A stretch of 64,000 nucleotides of DNA from Deltaproteobacteria bacterium. GTDB lineage: Bacteria > Myxococcota > Kuafuiibacteriia > Kuafuiibacteriales > Kuafuiibacteriaceae. Shown here one piece after another: positions 28,754 through 38,454 of this stretch; the stretch's first letter is position 1, and each line of letters opens with the position of its first letter. The stretch spans positions 96,001-160,000 of the forward strand of contig JAVJQW010000023.1 in the NCBI GenBank assembly GCA_040218735.1, written 5' to 3'. The translations under genes were made by a program, and so were the position numbers. The notes under the pieces were generated by a model. The model had not been told where the DNA came from, did not search any database, and was given only the letters and a program-made list of their open reading frames with translations.

Positions 28754-31339
28754 TCAGCTCACGCCGACCTGGGCGTCCGAGAGCTTCGCGTACACGTCGG
28801 CTCCGATGCGGTCCTTGACCTCGGCGATGTTGCGCCAGTTGCCGGCGAGCTCGTGCGGCGTGCGCTCGTGCTCCGCGTGCAGGACGGCCGACAGGTCGCG
28901 GTAACCGATCCCGTCCGGGTAGTTGTGTCGCTCGAGGAGCGCGTCGAAGACCCGGTCGTCGTACCAGCCGTTGTCGTACTCGAGCGAGGCTGCCGTGAAG
29001 AGGAGCGCCATCGTTTTGCGTTCCGCCGGGTCGAGGCCCCGGACGCGGCGGTTCGTCGACTGCGCCATCACGGCGTTGATGAACTCGTAGTGCAGCTCGG
29101 CGCGGAACGCCTCGATGCTCGCGTGGGAGAAGTGCGGGTTGAACGCAAACGTCCACGCGCCGGCGCGGTCCTTCGCGATCTTCACCATTGGATCGTCGGG
29201 ACCGAGGTTCTCCGAGAAGCCGTTCGAGGTGAGCGTCCGGACCTGGTAGCCGCCGTGGGTGATCGGGTTGTAACGACCGAACGTGTCGAGCGACTGCACC
29301 GCCGCGAAGAGCTTCGTCCCGTCGAGGCGATCGACCGGCACCGAGGGCGCCTTGGGACGGAACTCGTTACGGACGTCTTCCTCCGCCTTGATGCGACCGC
29401 CGTCCCAGACCGCCTGACCGCCGTCGGGGACGCCGTTGGCGTCGAGGTCCCAGAGCATGAGCTGCTCGAGGCGACCGGGGTTCGTGTAGTTGATGTCGAC
29501 CGTGTGGCTCCACGAATCGGTCGCGCGGTCGAGCGCCTTGCCGATGCTGTCCGTGCCCGTCCACGGCTTCAGCTTCACCATCGCGTCCATCATGCCGGTC
29601 ATCAGCATCATGTTCTCGGAGTAGTTCATGACCTTCGGACCGCCGTCGCGGTTGTAGTTGAAGTAGGTCGACTCGTACGTGTTGATCAGCTGCGCCGACT
29701 GCGGGTTCGGGTAGCGGTTGCGGATCATGAACGAGCGGTCGGTGGTGGCGCACGCGCCGATCGAGAGGATTTTGCTCCCCACCATCTCCGGTGCGTTGGC
29801 GATGCTGTTCTCGATGTTGCGGCCGAGGTTCGAGTGGCCGTCGTACTGGATGACGTCGATGTCCGGATCGTCCGCGGCCTGGAACATGTTTCGGCCGTTC
29901 ATCGGCGCGACGTAGACCTTGACCTGCTTGCAGATCGCGTCGGCGTCGCCCTGGTTCACGTCCTTCACGAACATCGCGTAGCCGCGTTTGTCGGAGGTCG
30001 CCTCGCGGAAGCCGTGTTTCTCGACGAGCATCTTCTTCGAGCCGACGTGGATGAGGTCGTCCTCCTCGTGACCGCACATCAGCACGAAGTTGAGCGAATT
30101 CTTCGCCGCCTGCGGCTGCCCGTTGGCGTCGTAGGAGATCTGGAAGATCGAGTCGTAGTCCGGCGTCTCGGGCGCCACCAACGGGACGAGCTCCTTCTCG
30201 AAGCGCGTCTTGTCGGCCGGCTCGAGCTGGTCCTTGCCCTGGTTGAGGCCCGACACGAGGATGCTGCGCACGTCGAAGTACGGGCTCGTCTTGACGAGGT
30301 CCGCCGTGAAGTCGAACGCGGCGCGCTTCGTCGCGGCGTCACCGACCGTCGCGAGGCGACGACCGAGCGCACCGGCGCCGGCGTAGAGCGCCTTCTTCTT
30401 GGCCTCGCCGTACGTCTGCGCGGACTGCGTCGAGCCGCGGGTCGACACGTCGATCTTCCAGTTGTTGAGCGTGCCGACGTCCTGGCCGGCCTGGTCGATG
30501 ATGCGGATGCGCCAACGGCCGTTGACCTCTTTGCCTTCGAGCGCGCGCATCTGCGTGTCGTCGAGCGTGAACGTCTTCTTGATGTCGTCGGAGCTCCCGC
30601 CGCCGCGCGCGTGGAGCTGCACCGCGCTGCGGTCCGGCGCGACGAGCTCGACCGTGAGGTCGCCGACGTAGGTGTGCGAGATGTCGAGGTCGACCTTGAT
30701 GTCGGCGAGGCGGCCGCTCGCGTCGATCTCGATCGCGTCGCTGACCCAGCCGCCGTTGTCCGGGATGGAGAGGTTCGGCGCGCTCGCTTTCGTCTCGGAC
30801 TGACCCGGGAGCTGAACCGTGAGGACCTCGGTCTTCAGGTTGTCGAGCGCAGCGAGGAGGTGCGTGCGCGTGTCCGCCGGGAGGTCCGCGATCGGGTCGC
30901 CGCCGAGCTTCGTCAGCGCGAGCGCGAGCTGGTGGACGTTGTCGATCTTCACCGACGGATCCGACGGCGGGTCCTGGTTCGGGTGCGTGAGGATGTCGCC
31001 GCTCGGCGTGACGTAGAACGGCTCGACCGCGTTGTTCTGGAGGAGCTGATAACTACCGGCGCGTGAGACGAGCGCATCGAGTGTCTTCAGTCCCGCGGCG
31101 GCGTCCGCGCGCGAGATGCCGTTCGCGGCGAGGCGGTCGGCGAGCGCGTCCATGCCCTGCGACTGGAGCGCGGCGTAGACGTCGGCGATGCTGCCGCTGC
31201 CGATCCGTTTGGCGGCGGCCTCGAAGCCGGCCTCCAGTCCGTCGAGCGCCGCGACGCCGAGCTGGCTCCGGGAGACGGGGTCGTTCGGGACGGTGATGTT
31301 GCGATCGAAGACGTTCGACTTGAGGGCCAGATTCGGCAT
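28754..31339 (-). CDS. Hypothetical protein with a proprotein-convertase P domain and a possible clan CD (His-Cys) peptidase-like domain
   Basis: P domain SIPDN...VDLDISHTYVGDLTVEL...GRWRIRIIDQAGQDVGTLNNWKI; IQYDGHS...LSIGAC; no S8 catalytic motifs and no signal peptide. Confidence 0.65.
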   Translation of the reverse strand: MPNLALKSNVFDRNITVPNDPVSRSQLGVAALDGLEAGFEAAAKRIGSGSIADVYAALQSQGMDALADRLAANGISRADAAAGLKTLDALVSRAGSYQLLQNNAVEPFYVTPSGDILTHPNQDPPSDPSVKIDNVHQLALALTKLGGDPIADLPADTRTHLLAALDNLKTEVLTVQLPGQSETKASAPNLSIPDNGGWVSDAIEIDASGRLADIKVDLDISHTYVGDLTVELVAPDRSAVQLHARGGGSSDDIKKTFTLDDTQMRALEGKEVNGRWRIRIIDQAGQDVGTLNNWKIDVSTRGSTQSAQTYGEAKKKALYAGAGALGRRLATVGDAATKRAAFDFTADLVKTSPYFDVRSILVSGLNQGKDQLEPADKTRFEKELVPLVAPETPDYDSIFQISYDANGQPQAAKNSLNFVLMCGHEEDDLIHVGSKKMLVEKHGFREATSDKRGYAMFVKDVNQGDADAICKQVKVYVAPMNGRNMFQAADDPDIDVIQYDGHSNLGRNIENSIANAPEMVGSKILSIGACATTDRSFMIRNRYPNPQSAQLINTYESTYFNYNRDGGPKVMNYSENMMLMTGMMDAMVKLKPWTGTDSIGKALDRATDSWSHTVDINYTNPGRLEQLMLWDLDANGVPDGGQAVWDGGRIKAEEDVRNEFRPKAPSVPVDRLDGTKLFAAVQSLDTFGRYNPITHGGYQVRTLTSNGFSENLGPDDPMVKIAKDRAGAWTFAFNPHFSHASIEAFRAELHYEFINAVMAQSTNRRVRGLDPAERKTMALLFTAASLEYDNGWYDDRVFDALLERHNYPDGIGYRDLSAVLHAEHERTPHELAGNWRNIAEVKDRIGADVYAKLSDAQVGVS

Positions 31340-31346
31340 GAGGGGT

Positions 31347-31374
31347 TTATCGGCGAGAAGCCCCTACAGTTGCG
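31347..31374 (-). promoter_or_regulatory. sigma28-like promoter CGCAAC-N14-GCCGATAA
   Basis: Exact GCCGATAA (FliA -10 consensus) 7 nt before the ATG at 31339; related motifs at 35352 and 37862. Confidence 0.55.
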
Positions 31375-31405
31375 CCGGATGTAGACGCGAATCGCGTCGG
31401 ATGAC

Positions 31406-31675
31406 TCAGTCGTCGGAGAGCGTGGGGATCGGCGAAATCGTTGATGTTTTCACCCGCGAGTGGCCGCTCGGGCACTGCGCCATCGCCTGCTGGTAACGCG
31501 CCCGACACATCTGCTGCTCGTCGGAGGTCTCGAGCAGCTCCGACTCGGGGTCACCGGTAGGCTGGAAGGGCTGCTGCTGACACATCCTGTACGCCTCGTC
31601 GGCGCGCTGCGCGCAGGTCTGGTTCGTGGCGCAGCCGGCGAGACCGGCGAACAGCAGCAGGGCGAGCCATCGCAT
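31406..31675 (-). CDS. Small Cys-rich lipoprotein
   Basis: MRWLALLLFAGLAGC lipobox; four further Cys. Confidence 0.7.
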   Translation of the reverse strand: MRWLALLLFAGLAGCATNQTCAQRADEAYRMCQQQPFQPTGDPESELLETSDEQQMCRARYQQAMAQCPSGHSRVKTSTISPIPTLSDD

Positions 31676-31944
31676 CGGGCCGGACTGTAGGGGACGTTTT
31701 GGGTCGAGTCACGGACCGGAACCGAAAACCCTCCGCGGCACGATGGGAGAGCACCCGACCCCGGTCCGAGACTCTTGGGTCGAACCGTGATTCGTTAGTT
31801 CGGTCCGACGTAAGAGCACGGTGGGTACCGCGGAACATCACTCGGGTTTCGGGGCGGATGACGACAACTGGTGAGGGCCGCGGCAACGAGTTGTCACCCC
31901 AAACGGTTGACGAACTGTCACCCGGGGCTTTGGCATCCGCCGCG

Positions 31945-32727
31945 ATGACCGGCGCCTTCTTCGACACGCACGCGCACATCGACGGCCCCGAGTTCGACGA
32001 GGACCGCGACGCCGTCATCGGCCGCGCGCGCGAGGCTGGGCTGACGCACATGGTTCTGATCGGCGCGAGCGACGGGTTCGACAGCAACCCGCGCGCGGTC
32101 GCGCTCGCAGAGCAACATGACGACATGTTCGCGACGGTCGGCCTGCACCCGCACGACGCGAAGCTCGTGAACGACGACACGCTCGCGAAGCTCGAGGCGA
32201 TGGCGTCGAAGGACAAGGTCGTCGCGATCGGCGAGACCGGGCTCGACTACTACTACGACCAGTCCCCGCGCGATGTGCAGCGCGACGCGTTCCGCAAGTT
32301 CCTTCGGATGAGCCACGCGACGAAGAAGCCGTGCGTCGTCCACACGCGCGACGCCGAGGACGACACGATCGAGATCCTGCGAAGCGAAGACGCTGCGGGG
32401 TGCGGCGGCGTCATCCACTGCTTCACCGGCACGCAAAAGCTCGCCGACGCGGCGATCGACCTCGGCTGGTACATCTCGTTCTCCGGCGTCCTCACCTTCC
32501 GAAACGCCGACCCCCTCCGAGCGATCGCCAAGGACCTCCCGAAGGACCGCGTCCTCGTCGAGACCGACTGCCCCTACCTCACCCCCGTGCCGCACCGCGG
32601 GAAACGCAACGAGCCGTCGTTCGTCGTGCACACCGCGGCGTGCCTCGCGGACCTGTGGGACGTCGACGCCGAAGAGGTTCGGCGCATCACGGGTGAGAAC
32701 GCGCTCAGGTTCTTCGCGCTGAGCTGA
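31945..32727 (+). CDS. tatD: TatD family hydrolase
   Basis: FDTHAH; VGLHPH; AIGETGLDY; VHTRDA; GVIHCF; VETDCPY. Confidence 0.95.
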   Translation: MTGAFFDTHAHIDGPEFDEDRDAVIGRAREAGLTHMVLIGASDGFDSNPRAVALAEQHDDMFATVGLHPHDAKLVNDDTLAKLEAMASKDKVVAIGETGLDYYYDQSPRDVQRDAFRKFLRMSHATKKPCVVHTRDAEDDTIEILRSEDAAGCGGVIHCFTGTQKLADAAIDLGWYISFSGVLTFRNADPLRAIAKDLPKDRVLVETDCPYLTPVPHRGKRNEPSFVVHTAACLADLWDVDAEEVRRITGENALRFFALS

Positions 32728-35224
32728 CCGCGGCGCGGAGCGCCGAGCTCGTCGGGAAGTCGAGCGCGTCGAGCGTGGCGCGATGGGTCTTCTTGCCCGG
32801 CTTGTCCATCGTCATCTGCACGCTGCACGCGCCTTCGCCCGCGCCCCAGTCGAAGACCAGCCGCACCGTCTCCTCACGCGTCTTCTTCGTGATGACGAAC
32901 CCATCGGGCTTGGCCTCGAAGCGGGCGTCGCCCGGGGCGTAGCGCCAGCCGGCGAGCTCGCGCGCGTGTTCGAGGACGCGGTCGGCGGGCACGCCATGTT
33001 TGGCGACGGCGTTGTGGACCGCCTTCGCGCGCGCCTGCGGGGTCGGCGCGTCAGAGCGCGCGAGGACAGCGTCGACCGGCACCCCCGCCCACTGAGCGAG
33101 CGCGAGGCGGACGGCCGGGCTCGAGGTCAGCGGTTCGTAACCCCCACCGAACCCGCGGCCGTCGAGGTCCCAGACTTTCTTCGGAGCCTCGGCGTCGAAG
33201 AACGTGACGTCGACCTTCTTCGGCGACGCCGTATCGAAGAGCTCGAACACCGGCTCGCCGTCCTCGATGCGGGTCGGCGCGATGTCGCGCCGGCCGAGCC
33301 CGGTGTCGATGCGGACGCGGTAACGATCGAGATCTCCCAACCCGAGGTGGTCACCGCCGAGGCGGACACGCCAACCGTGTTTCGTGCCGTTGGAGATCTC
33401 CTCGATGCGCGCGCCGCGCTCGTCGATCGTCGCGAGTGTCACGAAGCCGTCCGCGTCGGGTGTGACGTCGCCGCGCTGCAACCGGTCGACCACCGCCGAC
33501 GCGCTCCCTTCGCCGCGCCGCAACCCCTGCCGCGCGTACGCTTGGACGTCCGCGCGGAACCGCGTCCTGCTGATCTTGCCCTTCGCGACCTTGTCGATCT
33601 GCGCGTCGCGCCAGCGGTTGAGCGTCGTCGCGTACAGGTGCGGGCACGGCCGGTTGATCCGCTCCGCGAGATCCGCGACCGCCTCGCGTTTCACGTCCGG
33701 CGCGTCCTTCAGCGCAACCTCGAGCAGCGGCGCCGCCGCGTCGATCAACTGCTGGGCGACGGCTTCGTCCCGCGCGGCGTCGGGCACGAGCGGCTTCATC
33801 GCAGCGGCGAGCGCGCGTGCATCGCCGCCGACCCTGACCAACGCCGCGAGCCCCGCGAACAGATCGTAGCGCGCCGGGTTCTCGACCTTCAGGCGATCGA
33901 TCGAATGCACCGCACCCGGCTCCGCCGTCTCGCCGATCTCTCGCGCGAGCTTTCCGAACGCGACCGCAGCCTCGCGGTTCGAACGCATCACCGTGTCGAC
34001 CTCCGACGCGCTCAGCCCGATGTGAAGCAACGCGTTCTCGGCCATCCGCCGCTCGAAGGGTCCGACGATCGCCTTGTGCTGGAGCTTCCGGTCCGACCAC
34101 TGCGCGAGGTTCTTGCGCTCCTCGCGCGTCGCGGCGCGCGAGAAGAACGAGAAGTACGTGTCGACGACCTGCTCGAAGATCTGCTCGGGCTCCTTCGAGA
34201 AGCCGAGCGACACGTGTGAGTTGCCCTGGTGCGGGTGGGTGCGGTCCTGCGCCTGGATCGTCCCGTGATCGATCGACTGGAGGAACGCGATGTTGTCGTA
34301 CGTCGGCGAGCCCTGCGGCGTGCGCATCCAGTAGCGGTCCGCCACCTCGATCGCCTTCTTCTTGTTGAGGTGCGCGAACAAACCTTGGAGCGACAGCGGC
34401 TGCGGCCTCCCGAGCTGCAAGCGAACTTGCTCACCGACGTCGAGCAAGAAATCCCGAACGCCGCCACGCCCCGTCGACGTGAGCTCGAGCAGGTGCGCCG
34501 CGCGGTCGAAGCGCCCGCACTCCACGAGGTACCCCGCCGTGCGCTCCGTCCACTTCCCGCTGCTGGTCTGACGATACCGAAAGCGCTCCTTCGTCCCGGC
34601 CACGGCCACCGACCGCGGGCTCTCGATGCCGTTGAGGTGATCCGTGAGCTGGTGAATCGCGTCGTGGACCGCCTGGCCGACGTCCATGCGCCCGTGACCG
34701 TGCGCGTCCTCCTCGGTCTGCCCGAGCGGCGCGGCCCCCGTCGCGATGCCCTTCACGCGCAGGAGCGCGGAGGTCTTCTGGCCGCCGCGCTGCGAGACCA
34801 ACGGCCGCCCGACGACGCCCGCGCGACCATCGCCCTTCACGATGTCGAGCTGATCCGCGTACCGCGTCGCCATCACCTGCCGCGACGACGCCTCGTCCGG
34901 CTTCGCGCGGCGGAGGATCGTGTTGCTCGCGAGCGCCGCCTCCTGCTCCGGGGTGAGGAGGCCGTACTTGCCGACGTCGAACCCGTGCTCCGCGAGCACG
35001 AGCGGATCCACGAACCACAGCTCGGCGCCGTCGTCCGGCACCGCGTCGACGGGGATGACGAGGTGCTCCGCGACGTCCGCGTCGAACCGGTCCGGGAGGA
35101 GCGGCCCGTCCCACAGCTCGTCGATCGCGGCGCGCTTCGGCGCGCTGCCCCAGTACGACTCCGCGTCCCCGCGCGGCGCCGCATCGACCGGCGGCTTCAC
35201 GCCGCCGCGCGGGACCTTCACCAC
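32705..35224 (-). CDS. Divergent SelO/YdiU-like pseudokinase (putative protein AMPylase) with a long C-terminal extension
   Basis: GDGRA; RVKG; GHGR; NGIESPRSVAV; QGSPTYDN; SIDHG, in SelO order. Start placed at GTG 35224 (the ORF is open to 35275). Confidence 0.65.
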   Translation of the reverse strand: MVKVPRGGVKPPVDAAPRGDAESYWGSAPKRAAIDELWDGPLLPDRFDADVAEHLVIPVDAVPDDGAELWFVDPLVLAEHGFDVGKYGLLTPEQEAALASNTILRRAKPDEASSRQVMATRYADQLDIVKGDGRAGVVGRPLVSQRGGQKTSALLRVKGIATGAAPLGQTEEDAHGHGRMDVGQAVHDAIHQLTDHLNGIESPRSVAVAGTKERFRYRQTSSGKWTERTAGYLVECGRFDRAAHLLELTSTGRGGVRDFLLDVGEQVRLQLGRPQPLSLQGLFAHLNKKKAIEVADRYWMRTPQGSPTYDNIAFLQSIDHGTIQAQDRTHPHQGNSHVSLGFSKEPEQIFEQVVDTYFSFFSRAATREERKNLAQWSDRKLQHKAIVGPFERRMAENALLHIGLSASEVDTVMRSNREAAVAFGKLAREIGETAEPGAVHSIDRLKVENPARYDLFAGLAALVRVGGDARALAAAMKPLVPDAARDEAVAQQLIDAAAPLLEVALKDAPDVKREAVADLAERINRPCPHLYATTLNRWRDAQIDKVAKGKISRTRFRADVQAYARQGLRRGEGSASAVVDRLQRGDVTPDADGFVTLATIDERGARIEEISNGTKHGWRVRLGGDHLGLGDLDRYRVRIDTGLGRRDIAPTRIEDGEPVFELFDTASPKKVDVTFFDAEAPKKVWDLDGRGFGGGYEPLTSSPAVRLALAQWAGVPVDAVLARSDAPTPQARAKAVHNAVAKHGVPADRVLEHARELAGWRYAPGDARFEAKPDGFVITKKTREETVRLVFDWGAGEGACSVQMTMDKPGKKTHRATLDALDFPTSSALRAAVSSARRT

Positions 35225-35351
35225 GGGGACCTCATCGGCGTGCCCAGCTTGGAACGGGGCGCGGACCGCTGGCAATCACGAGAATGCGCAGGTGGCCCGG
35301 CGTGGCCTGAGACATTCGCGCGGTCGGCGCGGTGGTTTCGCCCCGAAAACC

Positions 35352-35379
35352 CGCAACGAAATCAGCTGTCTGCCGAAAC
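35352..35379 (+). promoter_or_regulatory. sigma28-like promoter CGCAAC-N14-GCCGAAAC
   Basis: Same hexamer and 14-nt spacer as the site at 31347-31374. Confidence 0.5.
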
Positions 35380-35393
35380 TCAGCTTGTCCGCC

Positions 35394-35762
35394 ATGACGA
35401 CCCCGGCCAAGCCTCCCGCGAGCATCGAAACGCTCTTCGAGGAGCTCCTCGCCCCCGACGCGGCCGGTGAGAGCCGCTGCACGCGCCGCGAGCTCGAGGA
35501 CGTCATGGCGGTGATCTTCCTGAAGAGCCACCAACGCACGCCGATGTCGTCGGCGAACGGCGACGCCTTCATCGGCGCGTTCTTCACCCGCGTGGGGCTC
35601 CAGAGCGAGGACCAGCTCGACCAGCTCGATGAGCTCATCCGAGACTACTTCGTCGCCCACCCGCTTCGACAAGACGTGCTCGAAGACGTGCTCGAGGTGA
35701 TGCGGCCCGCCGCCTCCCTTCGGAACGTCCGCGCCGGATACGCGATCGGCGGCGCGTTCTGA
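35394..35762 (+). CDS. Small acidic helical hypothetical protein
   Basis: GC3-rich codons; its stop overlaps the next ATG (TGATG). Confidence 0.65.
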   Translation: MTTPAKPPASIETLFEELLAPDAAGESRCTRRELEDVMAVIFLKSHQRTPMSSANGDAFIGAFFTRVGLQSEDQLDQLDELIRDYFVAHPLRQDVLEDVLEVMRPAASLRNVRAGYAIGGAF

Positions 35763-37345
35763 TGTCGAAGATCCTGCCCTCCGTCGCTGCGGCCCAGCGC
35801 TACCGCGAGCAGACCGTGGACTGGGACGGCCTCGCCAGCGCAGTCCACCGCGCGCGCGGCCGGGCCGGCGTCGAACCCGGAAAGCCGGGCGTGGTGGAGT
35901 TTCAGCAGGGACGCGCCGCGGCGATCGAGCAAACCTACTTCAAGGAGAGCGGGCTCTTTCAGTCACGAATCGCGTATGCGATCTCCAACCCGGCCGTCGA
36001 CGTCGACGTCCTGGTCGAAGACCTGAAGGCGACCCTCGCGCCATCACTGGTCGAGGCGTCGAACAGCACGAAGCCGGGCGCCATCCAGAACGTGACCGTC
36101 CTCGGCGGAGGGCCGGGCGGGCTCGCCGCAGCGATCGCGTTGAAGAACATGGGCCTCGACGTAACGCTCGTGGAGCGCAAGCCGATCGCCGAGCGGCGCG
36201 TCTTCCCCATCTTCAACTCGCGCATCAACCTCTTCAACGACCTCGAGGCGCTCGGCGTCTACGGCTCCGTGATGGAGCAGTCGAGCTACACCGAGCACGT
36301 CGTGTTCCGAAACATGATCGCCGGCTACGAAGCCAGCCTGGAGCCGCTCCACGCAGCACGAGGCCAGGGGCACTTGACCGGCCCCGAGCTCACGGAGCTC
36401 GCCAAGGAAGGGACACCCCCGAAGATCGTCTTCGACGGCGACTTCAACAACCTGCAGGATCCGATCAGCCGACCGAGTCGTGCGCAGATCGCGTACGGGG
36501 ACATGGTGCACGGGCTCGCAGAGCGCGCGCAGGAGCTGGGTATCCACATCGTCGACGAGGCGCTCGCCGACGTCGTCCCGAACGACGCCGGCAAATACGA
36601 CGTCGTCGCGACGCGCAAGGACGGAACGAAGGTCGCGCTCGGCACTCCGGATCGAATCGTCGTCGCCCCCGGCAACCTGAAGCACTTGGGGCCGCTCGCG
36701 AACGAGTTCACGCACCTGAAGGAGTCCGCGCTTCGGAAGTTCTGCGCCGGGCTCGCGAACATCGCCGTGGGCAGCGTTCAGCGCCGCGTGATCAAGCAGG
36801 TCGGGGACGACACGCTGCGAACGGTCGTCGTCGGCCACGGACAGCGTTCCGCGGCGTGGATGCTGACACAGCTCCCCGAAGGCTGGTCCGGGGACGAGGC
36901 GGACCTCGCTCGCTACTGGAAGAACGAAGTCGGCGAGGCGCTCGCGCCGGAGCACGCCGCGCAGCTCTCGGACGACAGCATCGAGTTCGTCTCGCCGAAG
37001 CCCTTCGACGTCCAGCTCACGCGGCTCCGCAACATGTCGGCGAACAACCAGGTCCTCGCGATCGGCGACGCCGCGCACAAGGCGCACTTCCTCACCAGCT
37101 ACGGCGTTCACCTGGCCGTGGGTGGGGACATCCAGGCGCTCCAGGCGCACGTCGAGGCGTCGAACGCCTACGGGGAGGACGTCGGGTTCTGGGAGTTCGA
37201 CCGCATCATGCAGGAGAACGCAGCCGTGTGGTGTGGCGGGAGCCTCGACGAGTTCGAACACGACGACACGCCGTGGAACCTGCGCGCGCTGACGTTCGAC
37301 GACCGACAGGCACGCCCCGGCCGCTTCGCGCGCAAACCGCTCTGA
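35762..37345 (+). CDS. FAD-dependent oxidoreductase/monooxygenase with an N-terminal extension
   Basis: VTVLGGGPGGLAAA...VTLVE Rossmann motif starting at ~aa 110; AIGDAAH. Confidence 0.8.
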   Translation: MSKILPSVAAAQRYREQTVDWDGLASAVHRARGRAGVEPGKPGVVEFQQGRAAAIEQTYFKESGLFQSRIAYAISNPAVDVDVLVEDLKATLAPSLVEASNSTKPGAIQNVTVLGGGPGGLAAAIALKNMGLDVTLVERKPIAERRVFPIFNSRINLFNDLEALGVYGSVMEQSSYTEHVVFRNMIAGYEASLEPLHAARGQGHLTGPELTELAKEGTPPKIVFDGDFNNLQDPISRPSRAQIAYGDMVHGLAERAQELGIHIVDEALADVVPNDAGKYDVVATRKDGTKVALGTPDRIVVAPGNLKHLGPLANEFTHLKESALRKFCAGLANIAVGSVQRRVIKQVGDDTLRTVVVGHGQRSAAWMLTQLPEGWSGDEADLARYWKNEVGEALAPEHAAQLSDDSIEFVSPKPFDVQLTRLRNMSANNQVLAIGDAAHKAHFLTSYGVHLAVGGDIQALQAHVEASNAYGEDVGFWEFDRIMQENAAVWCGGSLDEFEHDDTPWNLRALTFDDRQARPGRFARKPL

Positions 37346-37351
37346 CGCGCA

Positions 37352-37801
37352 TCACTCCAGCACGAAGTCGAGGATTCGCGGTCGCCAGGTCTTCTCGATC
37401 TTCGAGAAGGACGTGGCCGGTCCGGTGAGGACGAAGTGTGTCAGGACGCCGTCGTCCACGCGCAGCAGGTGTTGCTGATGCAGCGTCAGGTGCTCGTCCA
37501 CGCGAAGCGCGACGGTCGCGCTCACGCCGGACTGGCCGTCAGAGAACTTCACTTCGGCCTGCCCGAGGAGCTCACACGTCGGTCCGCGCGAGCGCGCCAT
37601 GTCCACGACGTGGCTGAGCGCCTCCAGCGCGGAGTCCTTGGACGCGTGGCGGCTGTACACGAGGCTGACGTCGGGGCTCGGTTTGACCTTGCTGCCCGTC
37701 GGGAGCTTGGCGGTGGGGGACGGCGCCTTGATGGTGACCACGACCTCGCTGCGACACCCGTCGGGAACCGAGAGGTGACCGGGTTTGACGACTTCGCCCA
37801 T
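37352..37801 (-). CDS. DcrB/DUF1795 (PsbP-fold)-like protein
   Basis: Pattern xVPxG...SLVYSR...HQQHLL...HFVLT...W..IL resembles DcrB-related proteins; recognised by eye only. Confidence 0.5.
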   Translation of the reverse strand: MGEVVKPGHLSVPDGCRSEVVVTIKAPSPTAKLPTGSKVKPSPDVSLVYSRHASKDSALEALSHVVDMARSRGPTCELLGQAEVKFSDGQSGVSATVALRVDEHLTLHQQHLLRVDDGVLTHFVLTGPATSFSKIEKTWRPRILDFVLE

Positions 37802-37861
37802 CGCTTGGACCTAGCTCTGATTTCTCCTGGGGACAAACGTCCACGGGGCGGCCCATTCGGG

Positions 37862-37890
37862 CACAACGATCCGCCGTCATTCGGCGATAA
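37862..37890 (+). promoter_or_regulatory. sigma28-like promoter CACAAC-N15-GGCGATAA
   Basis: Variant of the motifs at 31347 and 35352; followed by a GGAG RBS and the ATG at 37921. Confidence 0.45.
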
Positions 37891-37920
37891 CCTGAGCACT
37901 CTGTACCGGAGTAACACGCC

Positions 37921-38454
37921 ATGACGATCAGCAAGACCCCACCCCCGCTCCCCAAGATGCTCGAAAACGGCGCACTGGTCGCGTCCGAAAAAGAGTGTCC
38001 GTGGTGGCCCGAACCGCTGCACGTTGCTCACGCCGTCGAGGTCATCGAGGGCCGCACCGTGCACCGTGGGTCGAACCACCGCCCGGGCGAGCAGGGCGTC
38101 AACCAACTCAACTCGGAGTGGGTCGGTGGCGCGCGCAATCACCTCCTCAACTACGTCATCCCGTTCAGCTCGGGCTCCCACTCCACGAATCGCAGCGCGT
38201 CGCACGGCAACACCGGCCTGGTCTCCGCTGCGCTCACGCGTCTTCGCGACGATCAGGTGGTGCACCAATCCCTTCCGCTGACGGAGGCGATGGAGGACGG
38301 ACTCGCACGCGACCAGCGCGACGTCATGGCGGCGGTCGCGCTCCTCGTCGCCGTCGACGAGCGCACGCGGACCACGACGTTCTACCCGGACACGTTCGAG
38401 AAGGCGGACCCGAAGGTCGACGTCGCCAAGATCGAGAAACCGGCCGCAAATTAG
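37921..38454 (+). CDS. Hypothetical protein
   Basis: GGAG RBS, GC3-rich codons, no recognisable motif. Confidence 0.6.
   Translation: MTISKTPPPLPKMLENGALVASEKECPWWPEPLHVAHAVEVIEGRTVHRGSNHRPGEQGVNQLNSEWVGGARNHLLNYVIPFSSGSHSTNRSASHGNTGLVSAALTRLRDDQVVHQSLPLTEAMEDGLARDQRDVMAAVALLVAVDERTRTTTFYPDTFEKADPKVDVAKIEKPAAN

Follow-up and report, generated by a model that had tools for sequence, protein, structure and literature searches.

A GCAAC-type promoter motif and a divergent sigma-28-family factor with links to non-flagellar type III secretion in Myxococcota

In Pseudomonas syringae and Erwinia, the extracytoplasmic function (ECF) sigma factor HrpL recognizes hrp box promoters, and the type III secretion system (T3SS) and dispersed effector genes share this promoter. 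We describe a regulon in the Myxococcota that resembles this arrangement but has another kind of sigma factor and another promoter. Our starting point was a window of 64,000 nucleotides (G000:C9:96001-160000), by which we mean the whole stretch of DNA that was analysed; it comes from a genome, G000, that has 11.6 Mb, 69% G+C, and 70 contigs and is 96.5% complete. A preliminary description of this window had proposed that three promoter-like motifs and a fourth site form one regulon of effector-like enzymes under an alternative sigma factor with a non-canonical -35 element. The whole of our evidence is computational. The alternative-sigma regulon is real and conserved, and two of the flagged promoters are inside it. 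Its motif has the form (T-rich)-C.CGCAAC-N14/15-(G)CCGATAA(C), and it is probably read by a divergent sigma-28-family factor that would be dedicated to a non-flagellar T3SS. We call this factor the C45 sigma, after its contig.

Like the HrpL regulon, the C45 system has one bipartite promoter before T3SS genes and about 90 dispersed genes, and a sigma-54 activator is encoded beside the core T3SS. Unlike HrpL, the C45 sigma has the three domains of a sigma-28-like factor rather than the two of an ECF sigma factor; the promoters are unrelated, and the predicted leaders are very short or absent.

The sigma-28 consensus is TAAA at -35 and GCCGATAA at -10, according to PMC8325347. The C45 system shares with FliA and FlgM the sigma family, this -10 element, a sigma gene located with genes for type III export, late targets of the axial type, and a small partner that is predicted to bind the sigma factor. 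On the other hand, its -35 element is GCAAC instead of TAAA, none of its targets are flagellar, and its regulon is much larger and mostly effector-like. Also, the candidate anti-sigma factor lacks similarity to FlgM, and the C45 sigma scores under the family cut-off.

Sigma-28-family factors have been reused in the Actinobacteria, where WhiG and its helical anti-sigma factor RsiG serve sporulation (Streptomyces) or type IV pili (Rubrobacter), as PMC8325347 describes. WhiG keeps the TAAA/GCCGATAA promoter (same paper), while in the C45 motif the -35 element has changed and the regulon is linked to a T3SS. Another related system is the needle-less T3SS* of Myxococcus xanthus. Its effectors are described as unknown, and neither of two papers mentions a sigma factor in the portions of their text that were available (PMC10433427, PMC12075869); the first of these, a review, sees in the non-flagellar T3SS of Myxococcota a form that may stand between the flagellum and the injectisome. 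In Myxococcaceae-like genomes, an ortholog of the C45 sigma lies upstream of sctJ, sctL, sctN, and sctO, and the motif precedes a conserved 189-aa gene beside it, although the motif is rare in these genomes. We searched the literature and found no paper that links a sigma-28-like factor with a myxobacterial T3SS. The M. xanthus ortholog may already have been named, as SigF, in another context.

The promoter motif

The spacing of the motif is strict. GCCGATAA occurs 108 times in the genome, and 25 of these copies have CAAC at N14/15. By spacing, the count of CAAC-N(s)-GCCGATAA is 14 for s=14 and 11 for s=15, and it is zero or one for each of the other 20 spacings (6-27). Similarly, the pattern GCAAC-N(s)-CCGATAA, whose core starts one base later, has 27 and 19 copies at s=15 and 16 and zero or one elsewhere. 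The canonical sigma-28 promoter, TAAA-N14-16-GCCGATAA, has no sites genome-wide, and the upstream regions of the flagellin genes contain no clear sigma-28 site.

We also built a two-block weight matrix from 85 trusted sites, all of them at the true spacings (14/15). Their consensus is a T-rich stretch, C.CGCAAC, N14/15, and (C)GCCGATAA(C). Within the -10 element, the CGA, T, and AA positions are kept in 80-85 of the 85 sites (the T in 83 and the final A in 80). At a matrix score of at least 18 there are 64 sites at spacing 14 and 59 at spacing 15, compared to 2-10 at each of 14 wrong spacings (82 total); because the matrix was trained at the true spacings, only the spacing count with plain patterns is free of circularity. 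From the excess over controls, we estimate that the genome contains about 100-130 real sites.

The sites are also close to genes. Of the 123 that score at least 18, 96 are at most 150 nt upstream of a gene start that is supported by third-position G+C content (GC3), while 24 of the 82 wrong-spacing matches are at most 100 nt upstream of such a start. Of 95 target genes, 49 have their start codon 5-12 nt after the final A of the -10 element, with modes at 7-8 and 11 nt; when we applied the same procedure to 3000 random positions, 11.7% fell into this range. Because the distance is only 5-12 nt, many of the mRNAs are expected to be leaderless or nearly so. If the geometry around the -10 element is like that of other sigma-70-family promoters, we lean towards leaderless starts at about half of the promoters. 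Across the whole genome, the motif is thus strongly enriched at its true spacings and is found just upstream of gene starts.

As a separate observation, about 40 of the 108 copies of GCCGATAA (counted by eye) belong to a repeat that resembles repetitive extragenic palindromes (REP-like). It is a G+C-rich inverted repeat that ends in ...CTTGC..GCCGATAACGGCC and is unrelated to the promoter family, and units of ~85-90 bp are often arranged in tandem where genes end. Examples outside the window are at C60:189427-189862, C21:459341-459696, C20:63719-63903, C1:15326-15512, and C45:121815-121938.

The sigma factor, the secretion genes, and the targets

The preliminary description proposed a look for a FliA-like sigma factor and for T3SS or type VI secretion system (T6SS) genes. 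G000 encodes three FliA/WhiG-like sigma factors and a T3SS cluster, but we found no gene for the T6SS sheath. One of the three is the C45 sigma, which has 317 amino acids and is only 25% identical to the flagellar FliA of the same genome. Its best family is TIGR02479 (FliA_WhiG), and the WhiG and FliA families are the other top matches. Residues 64-284, which span regions 2-4, align to the solved structures of WhiG (6pfv, 4.6e-30) and FliA (9wsm, 6pmi, and 1rp3), and its closest solved relatives are the WhiG chains 6pfv and 6pfj (E ~5e-30). Pfam matches cover regions 2 and 4, and the alignment to structural homologues indicates that region 3 is present.

The motif is found on both sides of the sigma gene. 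In G000, the gene order is tetratricopeptide repeat (TPR) chaperone, 145-aa protein, and sigma factor; downstream are a motif promoter that scores 28 and then an SctI-like gene, and a divergent motif promoter (score 26.5) lies upstream, before a conserved gene for a 216-aa protein. In a relative (L019), all of the parts are on one strand, in the order motif, 227-aa gene, TPR gene, 146-aa gene, sigma gene, motif, SctI-like gene, which implies that the sigma factor regulates itself there. We examined 37 loci from relatives, whose GC content ranges from 45-70%. In 23, a site that scores at least 16 occupies one of these two fixed positions, and in 13 both positions are occupied. The TPR gene is present at 32 of 37 loci, the 145-aa gene at 12 of 37, and the 216-aa gene at 29 of 40.

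Other features of these loci may be recorded here. Both in G000 (C45:35776-39719) and in the distant family f19 (L160:3855-7490), the sigma module has beside it a gene for a Ser/Thr protein kinase and two or three small ones of no known family. In the Myxococcaceae-like genomes G117 and G149, a second and weaker motif-like site, GCAAC-N15-CGACGATGAT, is conserved close to where the coding sequence of the sigma ortholog has its 5' end (L159:9990, score 13.0, and L158:9812, score 12.2).

The motif and the sigma factor also tend to occur together across the phylum. We counted exact copies of GCAAC-N15/16-CCGATAA in 201 Myxococcota genomes and used the reversed pattern as a control; a genome was taken to lack the sigma factor if it had no hit at E 1e-20 or better. 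G000 has 46 copies of the motif and none of the control. Within its family, an ortholog of the C45 sigma (50-80% identity) is encoded in 14 genomes, whose copy numbers range from 1 to 28 with a median of 9; G004, G014, G024, and G088, which lack the sigma factor, have none. Phylum-wide, 25 of the 27 genomes with at least 10 copies encode the sigma factor, and of the 69 genomes that lack it, all except G108 and G022 have fewer than 10 copies. (The tallies include an unpublished genome, G195, but no conclusion rests on it.) From these patterns, we think it quite likely that C45-type sigma factors recognize the motif. The strict spacing, the proximity to start codons, and the linkage to the sigma gene all agree with the earlier suggestion that an alternative sigma factor with a non-canonical GCAAC -35 element co-regulates a set of genes.

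The link to type III secretion comes from gene neighborhoods. First, in the Myxococcaceae-like genome G117, the sigma ortholog is directly upstream of sctJ, a FliG_C-like gene, sctL, sctN, and sctO. Beside it is a motif promoter (23.8) before a gene for a 189-aa homologue of the 216-aa protein. The orthologs in Myxococcaceae-like genomes are 41-44% identical to the C45 sigma. Second, G000 has two T3SS ATPases, one of which is flagellar and the other on contig C23. The genes on C23 are, in order, a sigma-54 activator gene, sctN, sctO, and the gene for a 1620-aa protein with a deaminase-toxin end; then a motif and an SctP/FliK-like gene, a motif and a 249-aa lipoprotein gene, sctQ, sctR, sctT, and sctU; and then a TPR gene, a motif and a 407-aa protein gene, another TPR gene, and sctV. 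The core export genes of this cluster do not have the motif. Together with the neighboring sigma-54 activator gene, which points to a possible role of sigma-54 in transcription of the core T3SS genes, this suggests a two-tier cascade. Elsewhere in G000, the motif precedes genes for an FHA/YscD-type (SctD-like) protein and for small TPR proteins.

Two further observations concern the T3SS genes of G000. The 1620-aa protein, which is encoded between sctO and the SctP-like gene, carries a C-terminal domain of the BURPS668_1122 family of deaminase toxins. Also, there are six full-length genes and one partial gene of the FlhA/SctV family (FHIPEP), at C23:323241, C59:395676, C41:146084, C70:143580, C38:16372, C9:330842 (outside the window), and C16:73260, compared to two ATPases and one YscJ/FliF match. 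Several of these copies seem to stand without a full export apparatus.

The preliminary description had suggested T6SS effector adaptors of the DUF1795 type, but we found no match to the sheath protein TssC/VipB (PF05943) in this 96.5%-complete genome. We rejected this route; the candidate adaptor in the window, a 149-aa protein, does not match PF08786 either. A non-flagellar T3SS is the delivery route that we would suggest instead, given that the motif is found before SctI-, SctD-, and SctP-like genes and before chaperone-flanked genes and that no TssC/VipB was found.

To describe the targets, we compared the 100 top entries (99 distinct genes) to Pfam, with a cut-off of E 1e-3 or better, and 60 of the 100 had no match. 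The others include proteases (calpain-type, clostripain-type or C11, C39-like, and matrixin or M10), lipid enzymes and other hydrolases (PLD, an APP1-type lipid phosphatase, esterases, and alpha/beta hydrolases), and cell-wall-related proteins (NlpC/P60, a peptidoglycan-binding domain, and a Tse3-N-like domain). There are also kinases and nucleotide enzymes (Ser/Thr and ABC1 kinases, a circularly permuted ATP-grasp protein, and a DUF294 nucleotidyltransferase) as well as repeats and domains of unknown function (ankyrin, DUF1521, DUF3626, and the P-domain protein of the window). Two of the four genes of the DcrB family in the genome carry the motif. In many of the targets, the catalytic domain starts 90-230 residues from the N-terminus, and in a few it starts even later. 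Hydrophobic, signal-like N-termini are depleted (13 of 95 targets compared to ~36% of ~1500 crudely called control open reading frames), and the first 25 residues show an excess of Asn, Gln, Pro, and Thr. The preliminary description's view of the targets as an effector-like set without signal peptides fits these numbers. On balance, these sequence features lead us to favor secretion by the T3SS; contact delivery and a role in predation are steps that we infer.

A small partner may control the sigma factor. Among close relatives, the 145-aa protein shows high conservation (alignment A1). The predicted complex of the C45 sigma and this protein has an ipSAE of 0.76 (0.77, 0.76, and 0.76 in separate runs), compared to 0.03 for the best of three controls, and the ipSAE mark is one that 116 of 157 complexes with solved structures reach, compared to 2 of 215 mismatched pairs. 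The contacts agree by at least 62% between runs, and the pLDDT of the partner is at least 66. The predicted contact involves region 3 of the sigma factor and the end of region 4; the interface in the model is formed by residues 150-226 of the sigma factor and residues 83-95 and 111-144 of its partner. The model supports binding of the 145-aa protein to the C45 sigma. That the 145-aa protein might be exported is pure analogy to FlgM, and an anti-sigma checkpoint is a tentative proposal that we would put slightly on the doubtful side. We also noticed a 199-aa protein at another locus (L176, G117:C1:1075367-1078394) that has an exact copy of the motif before its gene and whose N-terminus, MSRIDGG..., resembles the MPRIGGGG of the 145-aa protein.

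The model that we propose is as follows. The C45 sigma would read about 100-130 dispersed promoters, including two of those flagged in the window (P1 and P3). One group of targets would be late T3SS parts, namely the SctI-like rod protein, the SctD-like and SctP/FliK-like proteins, the 216-aa protein with its terminal helices, and TPR chaperone-like proteins. The other group would be a large and mostly signal-less set, with many enzymes behind N-terminal extensions, that we take to be secreted effectors. The sigma factor is encoded together with a TPR protein that resembles class II chaperones and with the 145-aa protein, its predicted binding partner. In analogy to FlgM and FliA, the 145-aa protein would keep the sigma factor inactive until a working T3SS exports it. 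There would be two tiers, with the core export genes under the sigma-54 activator and the late genes under the C45 sigma.

Weighing the evidence

A number of points weigh against our proposal. Some concern the sigma factor and its reach. Its score to TIGR02479, 158.8 bits, is below the curated cut-off of 189.6, and in G000 the operon of the TPR gene, the 145-aa gene, and the sigma gene has no motif upstream. G108 has 34 copies of the motif and no sigma factor was found in it, in an assembly that is only 75% complete. G022 (family f15, 97% complete) has 18 copies and no sigma match at 1e-20, so either its sigma factor is more diverged or it has another reader. Conversely, genomes of family f17 have the sigma factor but only 0-4 exact matches to the motif. 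Copy numbers in the Myxococcaceae-like family f9 are 2-9, and G117 has 3 compared to 1 in the control; we considered the motif as an effector tag in these genomes, but its use there is limited. The surveyed genomes are also related to each other, and their counts are not independent.

Other points concern the secretion system. No T3SS-type secretin scored above the cut-off in G000, and the only Pfam match to YscJ/FliF there is the flagellar one, so it is uncertain whether the T3SS is complete. We presume that the 216-aa protein resembles needle proteins at its C-terminus, but neither Pfam (E up to 5) nor the PDB, which gave only spurious matches, confirmed this; its AlphaFold model has a mean pLDDT of 51.9, with terminal helices of moderate confidence. 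Pfam detected no similarity between the 145-aa protein and FlgM. And because FliA-FlgM complexes have been solved, the score of the predicted complex may partly reflect the likeness of the sigma side.

There are also points about the targets and the data. A minority of the targets have lipoprotein or Sec/Tat signals or look ordinary (for example PhoX, with a TAT signal, a porin, and a symporter). So not all of the targets are T3SS substrates, and some of this minority are probably false positives or periplasmic parts. Besides the circularity of the matrix, the gene calls and start codons come from a crude GC3 rule. We considered an RNA run (X1, 6% of sampled words) as evidence of expression and set it aside: its contigs are short and 90-99% identical to the genome, they evidently come from a relative, and they are uninformative about starts, strand, or level.

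The alternative that survives best is that the regulon is sigma-28-like but serves a developmental, stress, or envelope program of mostly cytoplasmic or periplasmic proteins, with the T3SS-like genes as one branch. There is precedent, as sigma-28-family factors have been reused for unrelated regulons (PMC8325347), and no secretin or needle family was detected. Such a program would also have room for the 60 of 100 top targets without a recognizable family and for those with lipoprotein or Sec signals or a housekeeping look (an Fpg-like glycosylase, a thioredoxin-like protein, PhoX, and the symporter). But we think that it is unlikely. Across the phylum, the sigma gene is within or beside T3SS genes, and T3SS parts and chaperone-like genes are direct targets. 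Furthermore, the scarcity of hydrophobic N-termini (13 of 95), the long extensions, and the eukaryote-like domains (Ank, calpain, APP1, and PLD) are more in line with secreted effectors.

Alternatively, an ECF (group 4) sigma factor might read the motif as GCAAC-N16/17-CGATAA, and the sigma-28-like gene would be merely another locus under its control. ECF promoters typically have AAC in the -35 element and CG at the start of the -10 element. Indeed, CAAC-N16/17-CGATAA is strongly enriched in G000 (43 and 33 copies compared to 0-4 at other spacings), and the 18 copies in G022, without a detectable ortholog of the C45 sigma, could also be explained this way. However, ECF sigma factors usually regulate themselves and none of the 100 top targets encodes a sigma factor. 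The motif flanks the sigma-28-like gene at 23 of 37 loci and co-occurs with it, and the full -10 element is the sigma-28 consensus, GCCGATAA, as given in PMC8325347. We consider an ECF reader to be quite unlikely.

It is very improbable that another FliA-like paralog reads the motif. The two others in G000, the flagellar one (C59:399958-400605) and one on C6 (C6:119474-120115), have higher FliA_WhiG scores than the C45 sigma (198.9 and 188.2 bits), and a GCCGATAA-type -10 element is what one would expect of them. But orthologs of the flagellar FliA (79-81% identity) are present in G004, G024, and G088, which lack the motif, and absent from G032, G040, and G112, which have 21, 19, and 28 copies, and orthologs of the C6 type were found in G108 and G112 only. 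Also, the flagellar FliA gene adjoins flhA in the flagellar cluster (C59:370-410 kb), which contains no motif that scores at least 12, and the region of the flagellins (near C41:340-362 kb) contains one, at 13.2. The sigma domain on C6, on the minus strand, is part of an 814-aa open frame with a weak match to the defense-associated sigma factor MzaA, and a REP-like element follows it.

Finally, the chance that the matches are accidents or copies of a repeat element, with no promoter function, is negligible: about 40 of the 108 copies of GCCGATAA are in the REP-like family and two of the four flagged sites are at chance level, but the spacing is strict, the spacers are not homologous, the downstream genes are unrelated, and orthologous positions are kept at 45-70% GC.

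The window and what the regulon would mean

Table 1. Sites and genes discussed in the text, with positions in the window unless a contig is given
Feature	Coordinates	Strand	Remarks
P1 (site 1), CGCAAC-N14-GCCGATAA	31374-31347	-	Matrix score 24.6; ATG at 31339, beginning 7 nt past the final A of the -10 element
P2 (site 2), CGCAAC-N14-GCCGAAAC	35352-35379	+	Matrix score 13.5 (-35 10.0, -10 3.5); ATG at 35394
P3 (site 3), CACAAC-N15-GGCGATAA	37862-37890	+	Matrix score 24.0; 30-nt leader with GGAG; ATG at 37921
Site 4, lone GCCGATGA	35239-35232	-	Without a -35 element at spacings 13-16
861-aa P-domain protein, effector-like	28754-31339	-	PF01483, 68 bits, residues 212-297; target of P1
89-aa Cys-rich lipoprotein	31406-31675	-	
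TatD-family hydrolase	31699-32727	+	
Distant SelO-like protein, ~816-856 aa	32705-35275	-	No motif promoter
122-aa protein and 527-aa FAD/Rossmann protein	35394-37345	+	Overlapping stop/start; downstream of P2
149-aa protein, possibly DcrB-like	37352-37801	-	Divergent from P3; no minus-strand motif that scores at least 9
177-aa protein	37921-38454	+	Target of P3; no hydrophobic N-terminus (hydrophobicity 1.5)
C45 sigma	G000:C45:32961-33911		317 aa
Sigma-54 enhancer-binding protein	G000:C23:284938-286440	-	Adjoins sctN/sctO
1620-aa protein	G000:C23:290938-295800	-	C-terminal deaminase-toxin domain

All four of the flagged sequences are in the window where the preliminary description had placed them (Table 1), but only half of the idea that they form one regulon held up: P1 and P3 belong to it, and membership of P2 and site 4 is not supported. 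P1 and P3 score well within the range of the trusted set. P1 is also found before the ortholog of its target in G108, a genome of the same genus (L162, score 26.8), where the -35 element, the -10 element, and the 7-nt distance to the ATG are kept and the spacer differs. P2 scores poorly because of its weak -10 half, despite a good -35 element. The -10 variants of P2 (CCGAAA) and of site 4 (CCGATGA), when combined with GCAAC, show no excess at the true spacing genome-wide. With these scores and the lack of enrichment of both variants, only P1 and P3 can be counted as members of the regulon. We rejected P2 as a regulon promoter, as its match is at chance level, and site 4 as a promoter of this family, as it has no -35 element and lies within the SelO-like gene if the longest open frame is taken. 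For footprinting of P2, we looked for orthologs of the FAD protein, but 19 genomes of its family contain none, and genome_contigs gave no relevant locus.

The two remaining targets in the window are candidate type III effectors by their sequence features. The P-domain protein lacks a hydrophobic signal (hydrophobicity 1.1), and its P-domain is behind an N-terminal extension of about 210 amino acids; neither it nor the 177-aa protein has a Sec or Tat signal. The G108 ortholog of the P-domain protein is 78% identical. Its C-terminal domain is shared with proteins in G032, G040, and G073, which represent three other genera, and these loci contain motif matches, apparently upstream. The 177-aa protein has no match in Pfam.

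The preliminary description also saw divergent enzyme domains in the neighboring genes. This is correct for the P-domain protein, but for the others it is so only in part. The sole Pfam match of the 527-aa FAD protein is an N-terminal Rossmann motif (residues 110-145), and it is doubtful that the 122-aa/FAD pair belongs to the regulon. The SelO-like protein has no direct match in Pfam and none in the PDB by sequence or profile. A homologue with 34% identity, P0004, passes PF02696 (32.4 bits compared to a cut-off of 22.8), and there is a weak lead from the Atlas as well. The fold model has a pLDDT of 56.6, with less than 50 for the N-terminal 230 residues, and a Foldseek search of the PDB gave nothing at E <=0.001. 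So the protein may be called SelO-like by transitivity through P0004 only, and by the motif, its gene is not a member of the regulon. The 149-aa protein has no Pfam match, including to PF08786 (E up to 5), but it has a BLAST hit (E=0.004) to a Pfam-positive DcrB paralog (C9:269724) that is itself a motif target; it is at best a distant relative of DcrB. Between the two effector-like genes there are also genes for a small lipoprotein and for a TatD-family hydrolase. The real start of the latter is probably further downstream, as its Pfam match begins at residue 88 of the longest open reading frame.

More broadly, and with more doubt than about the checkpoint itself, we propose that the non-flagellar T3SS of the Myxococcota inherited the flagellar sigma-28/anti-sigma checkpoint. 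The sigma factor would have been retuned to GCAAC and would control over 100 mostly leaderless genes in several uncultured lineages, the motif would be an effector tag, and the ortholog in M. xanthus would be a regulator of T3SS* that was not recognized as such. If this is true, then a flagellar-type sigma factor, perhaps with an exported inhibitor, stayed with a non-flagellar T3SS lineage, which bears on the origin of the injectisome. A whole regulon of leaderless genes would be unusual for a secretion regulon. It would also mean that there is a sequence rule, similar to the hrp box, that lists T3SS cargo and late parts across a large and mostly uncultured group of Myxococcota. The ~95 candidate genes, of which ~60 belong to no known family, could go directly into assays of secretion and toxicity, and they would be the first effector catalogue for a myxobacterial T3SS.

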